Source: Escherichia phage vB_EcoM_ESCO56. Taken from it: DNA of 64,000 nt. Positions 58,499 to 60,171 of this stretch are shown piece by piece. Where the stretch lies: sequence record OM386665.1; one strand, 5' to 3'. The notes under the pieces are model-generated. The model ran no database searches and had not been told where the DNA came from. It worked only from the letters and a program-made list of their open reading frames with translations. Made by a program: the position numbers and the translations under genes. The first letter of the stretch is position 1; the number at the start of each line of letters is the position of its first letter.

Positions 58499-58526
58499 TT
58501 GACATAGAAAATTTGGTGAGTATACT
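58499..58526 (+). promoter_or_regulatory. sigma70-type promoter (TTGACA-N16-TATACT)
   Basis: -35 at 58499-58504, -10 at 58521-58526; nearly 350 nt of ORF-free sequence follow. Confidence 0.6.
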
Positions 58527-58532
58527 GAGCAG

Positions 58533-58700
58533 CATAAACCAACGGGTACTCACCAGCATCACTTAAGAGTCTTTTAAAAGGGTTTTTAAGTGATGTATGG
58601 TCATGCACGGTTTGGCCTGGTGTGGTAAGGCGCGGCTCGGCGAGGTGCGGTGAAGTATGGGTAGTCAGTCTCAGCTACATTAAAATGAGACTCACCTTTT
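58533..58700 (+). ncRNA. candidate sRNA (module copy A) carrying a period-5 GG tract and ending in a hairpin plus T-run
   Basis: Downstream of promoter 58499-58526; GG tract 58609-58664; GTCTCA-12 nt-TGAGAC hairpin then TCACCTTTTT at 58665-58700. Ends are inferred. Confidence 0.35.
58609..58664 (+). repeat. period-5 GG-phased tract, copy A
   Basis: ggttt ggcct ggtgt ggtaa ggcgc ggctc ggcga ggtgc ggtga agtat gggta. Confidence 0.85.
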
Positions 58701-58728
58701 TAAAAGGTCTTTAAGAGGGTCTTTTAAT

Positions 58729-58793
58729 AAGGTAAGGTAGGGCAAGGTGAGGTCAGGTCAGGTACGGTAAGGTAAAGCATGGGTGGATGGTAG
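58729..58793 (+). repeat. period-5 GG-phased tract, copy B, with flanking conserved module
   Basis: aaggt aaggt agggc aaggt gaggt caggt caggt acggt aaggt...; preceded by AAAAGGTCTTTAAGAGGGTCTTTTAATAAGG and followed by hairpin GGTAG-16 nt-CTACC (58789-58814). Confidence 0.85.
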
Positions 58794-58875
58794 TAGCCAC
58801 ATTAAAAATCTACCAAGTTTCTAAAGAGTCTTCTGTTGAGGGTTCTTTACAAACAACTTAACAATAAACTAAAGT

Positions 58876-59478
58876 GTGGAGCTAAATGCTATGAAACTGC
58901 TAAATGTCAGAATCACTGGTACTCGTCCTTTCTTGAGCCATAATGATACGCTGTCAGACCCATTAAACCCTCTGACAAAATATCACAAGGCTCTGTCCAG
59001 TAAACGTAAAAAGACTGACGAAGACTATGCGCTCTTAGCAGAAAGTCAACTGGTAACTTCTTGTTACTATGATGAGCAACTTGGTTTTGTTATGAACGGT
59101 GAGATGATTGAGGCTTGTATCAAGTCTGGTGCAAAACTCAACAAACTTGGTAAGGTAATTGACCGAGCCATTATGCTGACAGATGTAGTCTTCCCAATGA
59201 CTATCAAGAACTGTCCAGCAAACCCACAAGAGCTTGCTAAGAATCCAGACTTTATCTATGCTAAGTCTGTTAAGATTGGTACAGCACGAGTTATGAGTTA
59301 CCGTCCAATCTTCCGTGACTGGTCTGTAGAGTTCGGTTTGATGTTCGATGAAGAGCAAATCACCCGAGAGGAAATCTTGATGGTTCTTGAAAATGCTGGT
59401 AACCTTTGTGGTGTAGGTGATTGGCGTCCACGCTTTGGTCGTTTTTCTGTAGAAGTTATTTCAGAAGGTAACATTTAA
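58876..59478 (+). CDS. hypothetical protein
   Basis: 200 aa ORF with GGAG RBS. Confidence 0.6.
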
Positions 59479-59480
59479 TT

Positions 59481-59921
59481 ATGAATACAAAAGCATTAGC
59501 AGCAAAGTTTAGTTACGGCGACACTGTATCACATTCTGAGATGGACACCTTCTTAGGTATTGTGAAGCCAACTTATCAAGGCGACATTGTTAAGTACGAA
59601 GATGAAATGAAGGCTTATGCACTTACACGTCTAAACCGACTTGAGAAGTTTATTGAGAAGCTTCTTAAAGAAGAGAAGATTTATCTGGTTGCTTCAATGG
59701 GTGTTGGTTATCGTGTGGTTGAACCTAAACATCAAGCAAATATTGCAAAACGTAAAATGTCTGGTAAGATTGGTCGTGCTTTAAAACAAGCCACTCAAGC
59801 AATTGAGAATGTGAACACTATGGCACTTAGCCATCAAGAACGTTCACGACTGATTGAACAGCAAAACCATTTAGCTGCTATGAAGGCTAACATTAACAAG
59901 CAACGCAGAAAACCTTTCTAA
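59481..59921 (+). CDS. hypothetical protein
   Basis: 146 aa ORF immediately after the preceding gene. Confidence 0.55.
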   Translation: MNTKALAAKFSYGDTVSHSEMDTFLGIVKPTYQGDIVKYEDEMKAYALTRLNRLEKFIEKLLKEEKIYLVASMGVGYRVVEPKHQANIAKRKMSGKIGRALKQATQAIENVNTMALSHQERSRLIEQQNHLAAMKANINKQRRKPF

Positions 59922-59932
59922 GTTGACTAGGT

Positions 59933-59955
59933 AGCCTCTTCGGAGGCTCCTTTTT
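59933..59955 (+). terminator. intrinsic terminator
   Basis: AGCCTC-TTCG-GAGGCT hairpin followed by CCTTTTT. Confidence 0.7.
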
Positions 59956-59983
59956 AAAAGGTCTTTAAACAGGGTCTTTTAGT

Positions 59984-60057
59984 AAGGCATGGCTAGGTGA
60001 GGTCTGGTAGGGTAGGGTGAGGTGGGGTTGGGTTGGGTTTGGTATGGAAGGATGGCA
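59984..60057 (+). repeat. period-5 GG-phased tract, copy C (contains a G-quadruplex-type motif)
   Basis: aaggc atggc taggt gaggt ctggt agggt agggt gaggt ggggt tgggt tgggt ttggt; preceded by AAAAGGTCTTTAAACAGGGTCTTTTAGTAAGG, followed by hairpin GGCAG-16 nt-CTGCC (60054-60079). Confidence 0.85.
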
Positions 60058-60171
60058 GTAGCCTTATAAAAAATCTGCCAAATAAGCTATAAAATCTGTT
60101 GACAAGTCAGGTGTTATAGCTTATTTTTATACTCAACGTAATACAAAATTTAATATAACTTTGAGGTCATT

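Follow-up and report, generated by a model that had tools for sequence, protein, structure and literature searches.

Three period-5 GG modules of a Felix O1-like phage are the guide RNAs of a type II VIPR locus

The window (the whole 64-kb stretch of phage DNA that was analysed) contains, in this order, a ligase gene, a 399-nt intergenic region, vipr, vap1, a 250-nt intergenic region and the next gene, which is the gene order of a minimal type II VIPR locus. The two intergenic regions carry three modules, A, B and C, each built around a run of GG-phased pentamers (Table 1). The layout ligase-vipr-vap1 with long intergenic flanks is also found in wV8, dune, AYO145A and SUSP2, and the phage of the window is itself Felix O1-like (Felixounavirus). 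A sequence-only reading of this DNA had picked out the three modules and called their architecture unrecognised; it has in fact been described since April 2026 in two preprints on type II VIPR (bioRxiv 10.64898/2026.04.26.720920 and 10.64898/2026.04.26.720927). VIPR (Viral Interference Programmable Repeat) is a phage-encoded, CRISPR-related system for RNA-guided DNA silencing (10.64898/2026.04.26.720920/.720927). The three modules are its guide RNAs (vrRNAs), i.e., the finding is real but previously explained.

Table 1. Features of the VIPR region, with positions in the window
Feature	Position	Strand	Details
Sigma-70-type promoter, upstream vrRNA array	58499..58526	+	TTGACA-N16-TATACT, 11/12 consensus positions
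5' flanking hairpin type i, before vrRNA A	58556..58596	+	19 bp, several G.U; -18.2 kcal/mol, z = -6.5
vrRNA A repeat tract	58594..58660	+	13 GGYNN units; guide NN string AT CA AC TT CT GT AA GC TC GA GC GA AT
vrRNA A 3' tail	58660..58696	+	Pseudoknot S1 GTAG/CTAC, S2 AGTCTCA/TGAGACT, then T-run
5' flanking hairpin type ii (upstream box), before vrRNA B	58695..58732	+	-11.4 kcal/mol, z = -2.7; 12-bp core stem with 3 G.U + 4-bp outer stem
vrRNA B repeat tract	58731..58782	+	10 GGYNN units; guide NN string AA AG AA GA CA CA AC AA AA AT
vrRNA B 3' tail	58782..58815	+	Pseudoknot S1 GTGG/CCAC, S2 TGGTAG/CTACCA
Hairpin after vrRNA B	58817..58854	+	Third copy of the box, no tract following; -13.6 kcal/mol, z = -3.35
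vipr	58891..59478	+	195 aa, RAMP-like guide-RNA-binding protein
vap1, accessory gene	59481..59921	+	146 aa; directly 3' of vipr
Intrinsic terminator, vipr-vap operon	59933..59955	+	T-run extends into next hairpin
5' flanking hairpin type ii, before vrRNA C	59949..59987	+	RNA fold
vrRNA C repeat tract	59986..60047	+	12 GGYNN units; guide NN string AT TA GA CT AG AG GA GG TG TG TT AT
vrRNA C 3' tail	60047..60080	+	Pseudoknot S1 AAGG/CCTT, S2 TGGCAG/CTGCCA
Inverted repeat (RNA hairpin) after vrRNA C	60080..60127	+	13 bp, perfect; -17.8 kcal/mol, z = -5.6

According to phmmer, the Vipr protein of the window matches PDB entry 36pp_D ('SUSP1 Vipr protein') with E = 3e-126 and about 95% identity over 195 aa. 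It has the make-up of a type II Vipr, i.e., a minimal RAMP with RRM core, G-loop and thumb and more than 90% identity to SUSP1 Vipr (the cut-off that also defines the type II SUSP1 clade). The residues H17, K33, R39, E71, M72, K82, G87, K88, R138, C173, D177, W178 and R179, which the structure paper cites as RNA or DNA contacts (10.64898/2026.04.26.720927), are all conserved, as is the G-loop CGVGDWR. Position 175 is V in both the window and the 36pp_D sequences, whereas the text of the structure paper has T175 (10.64898/2026.04.26.720927). SUSP1-clade Vipr is widespread, with 117 phage records at 89% identity or more. The vap1 product is 98.6% identical to SUSP2 gp039, which occupies the same position; it has no match in Pfam or PDB and belongs to PHROG 5926 (function unknown), and neither Pfam nor PHROGs gives a function to vipr or vap. 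The neighboring proteins showed no cas domain, and the locus has none of the identical 25–40-nt direct repeats, unique spacers and cas genes of a CRISPR-Cas system. Modules B and C had been placed in the leaders of genes starting at 58876 and 60172; they are instead independent vrRNAs flanking the vipr-vap operon, and vipr starts at 58891, not 58876.

We scanned all 64 kb for GG at a 5-nt period. Only the three tracts have 9–10 of 10 phased GG, no site outside them reaches 6/10, and the complementary strand (phased CC) has a top score of 4/10; the three modules are thus real and unique in the window. A tandem-repeat scan returned only 5-nt and 20-nt period rows in the region. Using 75 distinct tracts from the window and related phages (935 units), we were able to define the unit: positions 1 and 2 are G (0.80 and 0.98), with C absent from position 1, position 3 is T (0.88) or C (0.11), hence a pyrimidine in 99% and A in 0% of the 935 units, and positions 4 and 5 are near uniform. 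The period of 5 described for GG holds, the conserved unit being GGY and not GG alone. Tract length is 5k+2 nt, a whole number of units, in 73 of the 75 tracts, which span 9–19 units. The tract sequences are hypervariable, and fully different between phages with nearly identical flanks. SUSP1-clade vrRNAs are reported to have 9–16 YNNGG units (10.64898/2026.04.26.720920/.720927) as compared to up to 19 in our tract set; the tracts of the window, with conserved GGY and hypervariable NN, fall within the reported range. No Rfam family was matched in the region, with either gathering or E-value thresholds (the top sub-threshold match is DUF2815 RNA, RF03084, with 16.7 bits vs a threshold of 41.2 and E = 8.6), and the Felix O1 genome paper makes no mention of these repeats.

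Hairpins bracket every vrRNA of the clade. They are long and rich in A/U and G.U pairs, with types i and ii on the 5' side and a further hairpin that closes each array behind its final vrRNA; the text of the VIPR discovery preprint does not contain them. Changes in the type i hairpin among relatives are limited to the loop, one of them being an insertion of 22 nt, the type ii hairpin before vrRNA B likewise keeps its arms while its loop varies, and a covariation test on the 5' hairpins found that the arms hardly vary. The type ii hairpin corresponds to an upstream box pointed out in the sequence-only reading, which is present as quoted in B and C, has a related variant in A, and folds as an RNA hairpin. 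The promoter of gene 60172 (TTGACA-N17-TATTTT) has its -35 box inside the inverted repeat that follows vrRNA C. The hairpins around each vrRNA may delimit where a longer precursor is processed: they could be RNase III-type cleavage sites or start/stop marks of the Vipr filament, which would excise the vrRNAs from a read-through precursor and fix the register.

Module A had been proposed to be a free-standing small RNA, and this proposal stands: it lies behind a near-consensus promoter (a promoter is annotated at the homologous site in the AYO145A record) and ends in a stem with a T-run 4 nt downstream. The promoter scan gave no recognisable sigma-70 promoter for the downstream vrRNA itself, which lies 3' of the intrinsic terminator. 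In 58400–60250, promoter-like matches are no commoner than in shuffles, and the sole promoter-like site on the minus strand (59197–59170, 9/12) points away from module C. This bears on the suggestion that the complementary (NNRCC)n is a Rho-utilisation site which terminates antisense transcripts. The antisense strand is C-rich and G-poor across 50–70 nt, the size of a rut site, but the neighboring genes and the vrRNA promoter are all on the + strand, there is no CC-phased transcript context, and a rut site needs neither strict phasing nor a conserved R before CC. We therefore give the antisense reading practically no credence.

At their 3' ends the vrRNAs carry an H-type pseudoknot, as reported for the SUSP1 clade (10.64898/2026.04.26.720920/.720927). 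The stem that changes from GGTAG/CTACC in B to GGCAG/CTGCC in C is real and reflects a selected structure, but what had been taken for a lone covarying hairpin is one of the two helices of the pseudoknot. In an alignment of 25 distinct rows, 88.7% of the pseudoknot cells are paired, vs 71% in shuffles and 26–45% in slid controls. Helix S1 is 99% paired, with both-side changes at three of its four pairs, and helix S2 shows covariation at 5/5 core pairs. Both helices thus have compensatory changes across five tail lineages, and the independent covariation events are few because the alignment spans only about five such lineages. The earlier view of the modules as non-coding elements that act as RNA, with a selected structure downstream of the tract, is borne out, and related phages keep both the 5-nt GG periodicity (75 tracts) and the paired-stem covariation.

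We compared the guides with 19 satellite variants out of 547 satellite-bearing E. coli genomes. With a skip of 1 nt, 58 of the 75 clade guides match a satellite at 80% or more of their NN positions, as compared to 6 of 75 after shuffling the order of units; skips of 0, 2 and 3 nt give 1, 3 and 2 guides, respectively. The satellite is the same as in the VIPR paper: one satellite locus (L045) encodes WP_096972664.1 and WP_096972663.1, which are named as satellite proteins in Fig. S14 of that paper (10.64898/2026.04.26.720920/.720927). For guide A, 23 of 26 positions match within the Dam methyltransferase gene of the satellite (predicted target ACTAAAACATTCCTCGTAAAAGCGTCTGAGGCAGATTT; 0/200 shuffles equal the score), and the match is in codon phase, with NN at codon positions 1–2. 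Guide B has a marginal satellite match (17/20 positions, first 8 units perfect; 11/200 shuffles reach 17/20), and for guide C no significant target was found in the 19 satellites, IMG/VR or the GTDB representative genomes. In type II systems the natural targets lie mostly in a competing satellite, with the skipped base at the wobble position of codons; targets under the 1-nt skip are seen here for most clade guides and, in codon phase, for guide A. An exact xNN pattern scan of IMG/VR gave 0 matches for guides A and C and six for guide B, none of which resembles the satellite; we take these six as chance, together with one GTDB match of guide C (a Mesoplasma genome; about 0.5 random matches expected). 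There is no self-targeting at 80% or more in the window (top self matches 17/26, 15/20 and 17/24), and the preprints report none in their own systems (10.64898/2026.04.26.720920/.720927).

These matches weigh on a further suggestion of the sequence-only reading, a protein-titrating RNA with repeated GGU. We considered it as a sponge (CsrB-like or TRAP-site-like) in which GGU soaks up a host or phage RNA-binding protein and NN are free spacers. The motif is indeed periodic, C-poor, weakly structured and present in 9–19 copies, and a TRAP site has 11 (G/U)AG repeats. However, the NN are not neutral, given how many guides match one satellite at one spacing relative to shuffles, and the gene between the modules encodes Vipr, a guide-binding protein of solved structure. 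Moreover, CsrA depends on GGA presented in hairpin loops, and TRAP on GAG/UAG triplets with spacers of 2–3 nt; GGY, with no A at position 3, fits neither, so the repeats are not of the CsrB/RsmZ or TRAP type. What survives of the suggestion is the binding of GGY by a protein, Vipr (10.64898/2026.04.26.720927); titration does not, the NN guide specifying a DNA target. We consider a sponge very improbable.

Action at the level of DNA or its structure (a two-tetrad G-quadruplex, an R-loop transcription-primed origin or an array of primase GTN sites) appears to us extremely improbable. GGN3 repeats do suit the G2L3 quadruplex pattern, copy A is preceded by a strong promoter, and G-Y-N resembles phage primase sites. 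Yet such action would not account for a pyrimidine at position 3 in 99% of units, a position 1 that is never C, a register of exactly 5 nt, a pseudoknot that covaries or guides that match targets. With their G.U pairs, the flanking hairpins argue for a role as RNA, and the DNA-level phased binding array proposed earlier is unsupported. Vipr pockets that read G1, G2 and Y3 already account for the pattern (10.64898/2026.04.26.720927). Other candidates tried and dropped are a TRAP-like ring-protein site, a thrombin-aptamer-like two-tetrad G-quadruplex, an R-loop replication origin, a primase G-Y-N array, RfaH ops-like sequences, Chi-like or BREX GGTAAG sites, a tandem Shine-Dalgarno sponge, and a diversity-generating retroelement (DGR) with A-to-N mutagenesis of (GGTAA)n, because none of them explains GGY conservation together with the strict register, pseudoknot covariation and the matches of guides to targets.

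It could also be that the locus is a VIPR relic, whose sequences are kept while guides B and C, or one of them, have become targetless and hence inert. The lack of a significant target for C and the marginal one for B fit this idea. Against it, B and C both retain an intact GGY grammar, register and tail, the sample covers 19 of 547 satellite-bearing E. coli genomes, and targets were identifiable for just 20 of 41 SUSP1-clade guides in the preprints (10.64898/2026.04.26.720920/.720927). We regard a relic as unlikely.

On the observed protein identity, repeat grammar with its exact 5-nt register, pseudoknot covariation and skip-1 satellite matches, the region 58499–60127 is almost certainly a complete VIPR locus of type II, carried by a Felix O1-like phage. 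It shares with SUSP1 a Vipr of about 95% identity, vap1 in the same position, GGYNN vrRNAs with a 3' pseudoknot in long intergenic regions on both sides of vipr-vap, and guides aimed at the same E. coli satellite family with a 1-nt skip. It differs in having two vrRNAs upstream and one downstream of the vipr-vap1 operon (one and three, respectively, in SUSP1), in the NN strings of its guides, and in genus (Suspvirus in the case of SUSP1).

Among better-known systems, the backbone of class 1 CRISPR effectors (Cas7/RAMP on crRNA) is similar in that a RAMP-fold protein forms a filament on a guide RNA, its thumb flipping bases out at a fixed period, and a conserved structured handle caps a variable guide (10.64898/2026.04.26.720920/.720927). 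Unlike class 1 CRISPR, VIPR is phage-encoded, has no CRISPR array, cas1/cas2 or spacer acquisition, has a period of 5 nt with three bases sequestered (6 nt with one in class 1 CRISPR), and pairs non-contiguously with its target. In the TRAP-trp leader of Bacillus, an oligomeric protein reads a short conserved triplet about every 5 nt, some 11 times, on unstructured RNA. The likeness to vrRNAs lies in these features; TRAP differs in being a closed ring rather than a helical filament, in its triplet (GAG/UAG vs GGY), in spacers that carry no information, and in its function (attenuation, not DNA targeting), and the locus encodes no TRAP homologue.

For SUSP1, vrRNAs of about 100 nt are expressed, are recovered together with purified Vipr and silence their target at the level of transcription, and reprogramming NN changes the DNA silenced (10.64898/2026.04.26.720920/.720927). 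By analogy with SUSP1, we infer expression and RNP formation for the phage of the window. Each vrRNA consists of a run of GGYNN pentamers and a 3' pseudoknot cap; Vipr protomers, one per GGY (10.64898/2026.04.26.720927), would sequester the GGY bases and expose the NN dinucleotides, which would pair with the DNA target with every third base skipped (xNNxNN...). The outcome would be a Vipr-held R-loop triplex that blocks transcription of the target; filament formation, triplex and transcriptional silencing are taken from the preprints (10.64898/2026.04.26.720920/.720927). The hypervariable NN would then serve as a programmable guide, directed in this clade chiefly against a phage satellite that is integrated into the E. 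coli chromosome, and the VIPR locus would be a weapon in mobile-element conflict. More tentatively, and with somewhat less than even confidence, the bracketing hairpins could be dedicated biogenesis signals and, separately, guide C may be directed at a different element from the known satellite.

VIPR is a newly described form of RNA-based DNA recognition and a proposed ancestor of CRISPR effector proteins. The window adds a Felixounavirus member with three new guides, and is otherwise confirmatory; the 1-nt skip rule and satellite targeting are reproduced independently with a different guide set. The role of the flanking hairpins is a possible question of vrRNA biogenesis. That VIPR was recovered blind from raw sequence indicates that such scanning can find real new biology.

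The region between the DNA ligase gene and gene 60172 (see table), which aligns at 92-94% identity with Felixounavirus genomes (ESCO50, HY02, wV8 etc.), is a genuine, complete type II locus of VIPR, a phage system of RNA-guided DNA silencing. Deposited records label the 588-nt and 441-nt genes as hypothetical and the repeats at most as a "DR_4" repeat or "repeat_region"; the repeats at this locus go unmentioned in the Felix O1 genome paper. An Rfam search, proposed in the sequence-only reading, found no family matching the region, and Pfam and PHROGs gave no function for either gene product. 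A sequence search of the PDB matched the 588-nt gene product to chain 36pp_D, "SUSP1 Vipr protein" (E = 3e-126, ~95% identity), a similarity that we take as decisive for the identification. Of the residues named in the VIPR preprints, H17, K33, R39, E71, M72, K82, G87, K88, R138, C173, D177, W178 and R179 are all kept in the window's Vipr; position 175 is V there as in the PDB chain, whereas the preprint text gives T175. The 441-nt gene has a counterpart at the same position in SUSP2 (98.6% identity), and is therefore vap1 by synteny. The 1.8-kb region was matched in 234 phage records, only 129 of which encode a Vipr homologue. Distant homologues of Vipr, at 32-43% identity, are encoded by Pseudomonas, Mycobacterium, Gordonia and Listonella phages. 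VIPR and its mode of action are already known, since the preprints (April-June 2026) describe them for a sister phage with this ~95% identical protein.

Features of the VIPR locus, of the rest of the window and of related satellite loci
Feature	Position	Strand	Remark
DNA ligase	57391-58491		
Intergenic region	between DNA ligase and vipr		399 nt
Inverted repeat GGTGAGTA...TACTCACC	58516-58553		covers -10 box and start of vrRNA A precursor
Tract A	58594-58660	+	period-5 GG scan
Tract B	58731-58782	+	period-5 GG scan
vipr, then vap1	between the 399-nt and 250-nt intergenic regions		588 nt and 441 nt; true vipr start ATG 58891, not GTG 58876
Intergenic region	between vap1 and gene 60172		250 nt
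Tract C	59986-60047	+	period-5 GG scan
13 clustered tRNA genes	3919-7700	-	
Tandem repeat cluster	17700-19140		differing 8-12-bp repeats, dense
CCTTCTAACAAG x6.2	17891-17965		within tandem repeat cluster
TTAACAAG-like units	18363-18940		within tandem repeat cluster
Group I catalytic intron	38657-38981	-	Rfam RF00028, 53.5 bits, above gathering score
Predicted site of guide A	L061 (satellite variant) 8809-8846	-	23/26 positions
Satellite vrRNA	L044 (E. coli chromosome) 14987-15090		GGYNN tract, B-like pseudoknot tail
Satellite vrRNA	L045 (E. coli chromosome) 13749-13850		GGYNN tract, B-like pseudoknot tail

According to the preprints (10.64898/2026.04.26.720920, 10.64898/2026.04.26.720927), VIPR comprises Vipr, which is a minimal RAMP protein, an accessory protein (Vap) and guide RNAs (vrRNAs) built from 9-16 YNNGG repeats, in which GGY is conserved and NN hypervariable; in the SUSP1 clade the repeats are followed by a 3' pseudoknot tail. 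There is one Vipr protomer per repeat: G1 and G2 are gripped by the G-loop and thumb of a single protomer, Y3 lies in a pocket of the adjacent protomer that excludes purines, and the NN pairs bind DNA with every third base skipped, forming a protein-held R-loop triplex by which transcription is silenced.

The phased GG pattern first noticed in three modules is real, far above chance and richer than was described. Only three tracts in all 64 kb score 9-10/10 in a period-5 GG scan, and no other GG site reaches 6/10; in the output of Tandem Repeats Finder, period-5 arrays appear for copies B and C only. The top CC score is 4. Three annotated loci of related phages, plus 40 from IMG/VR that were retrieved with the box pattern, gave 75 distinct tracts, with G 0.80, T 0.14, A 0.07 and C 0.001 at unit position 1, G 0.98 at position 2, T 0.88 and C 0.11 at position 3, and near-uniform composition at positions 4-5 (all in register). 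These frequencies, measured independently beforehand, agree with the GGY/NN account. A protein-binding RNA with GGU repeats had been the right direction, Vipr being bound at each repeat per the preprints. A titration role is unsupported, as are the readings as gene leaders, as a rut-like site on the antisense strand or as a phased DNA-binding array. Tract length is 5k+2 in 73/75 (range 9-19 units), tract sequence is wholly different between phages sharing near-identical flanks, and module count varies (phage dune has three downstream modules). One guide is found with 3 or 4 CAGGT units in related loci (e.g. L031, L037, L040, L012), indicating slippage by whole pentamers, which would explain the exact 5-nt register.

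The stem on which the sequence-only reading based its covariation argument (GGTAG/CTACC in B, GGCAG/CTGCC in C) forms one of the two helices, S2, of an H-type pseudoknot; the other helix, S1, reads GTAG/CTAC (A), GTGG/CCAC (B) and AAGG/CCTT (C). When 25 distinct tails of five lineages are aligned without gaps, 88.7% of cells are in standard pairs (71% in shuffles, 26-45% with partners slid 1-3 columns). The argument pointed in the right direction: S1 is 99% paired with both sides changing in 3/4 pairs, and all five pairs of the S2 core covary, with few independent events. Tail types are position-specific, with A internal, B before vipr and C at the array end.

The upstream "box" folds as an RNA hairpin. 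The one ahead of vrRNA A is of type i (19 bp, z = -6.5), whereas vrRNAs B and C are preceded by type ii (12-bp core, three G.U pairs). A hairpin also comes after vrRNA B (z = -3.35) and another after vrRNA C (z = -5.6), where 13 perfect bp surround the -35 box of the promoter that follows. Hairpin arms are near-invariant among relatives, and loops are variable, some with a 22-nt insertion. We infer that the hairpins are boundaries at which longer transcripts are cut to release ~100-nt vrRNAs; neither flanking hairpins nor vrRNA processing is mentioned in the text of the discovery preprint. A strong promoter (11/12 consensus positions) precedes the upstream array. The downstream vrRNA sits after an intrinsic terminator with no clear promoter of its own in the promoter scan, so read-through is its likely source. 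The inverted repeat at the start of the vrRNA A precursor may be an operator or leader structure; ACTCACC is found again at 58690-58696, where tail A ends.

Scanning 19 satellite variants with all 75 guides reproduced the published 1-nt skip rule with a separate guide set: 58/75 guides had an NN match of at least 80% (25 of these at least 90%), as compared to 1, 3 and 2 guides with skips of 0, 2 and 3 nt, and 6/75 with shuffled unit order. Guide A has its predicted site inside the satellite Dam gene, with units 3-12 perfect and NN on codon positions 1-2, a score reached by 0/200 shuffles. Guide B matches 17/20 positions just 3' of Dam in six variants (first eight units perfect), which is marginal because 11/200 shuffles do equally well. 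The top match of guide C in the 19 variants (18/24) is not significant, and searching IMG/VR and GTDB genomes for its exact pattern gave nothing relevant. None of these three guides reaches 80% against the window itself.

Among complete E. coli genomes, a BLAST search with the locus as query found vrRNA-like sequence in 39 chromosomes, inside an integrated element of ~11-15 kb. Genes for a serine recombinase, a tape-measure protein and a baseplate protein are present in this satellite, joined in many variants by one for a Dam methylase; relatives occur in 547/5,426 E. coli genomes. The L045 satellite carries WP_096972664.1 and WP_096972663.1, the proteins named in preprint Fig. S14, and in its vrRNA tail A-U is replaced by C-G, a compensatory change. 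The vrRNAs in L044 and L045 agree with the VIPR preprint's remark that some satellites encode vrRNAs. The satellite is without vipr-like DNA, since a scan of E. coli for such DNA matched only the satellite vrRNA segment. Satellites are mosaic, often broken by IS elements, and integrated at several chromosomal sites (within yecE (DUF72); adjoining wrbA/ymdF, tonB/yciI and lpxL/mdtG; L044-L050, L057-L062, L065-L070).

Elsewhere in the window, the table lists a group I intron, a tRNA cluster typical of Felix O1-like phages, and a tandem repeat cluster that could be an origin or regulatory array.

For the VIPR locus, the remaining interest is modest, and lies in the target of guide C, in the way that tail type depends on position, and in the hairpins on either side of each vrRNA.
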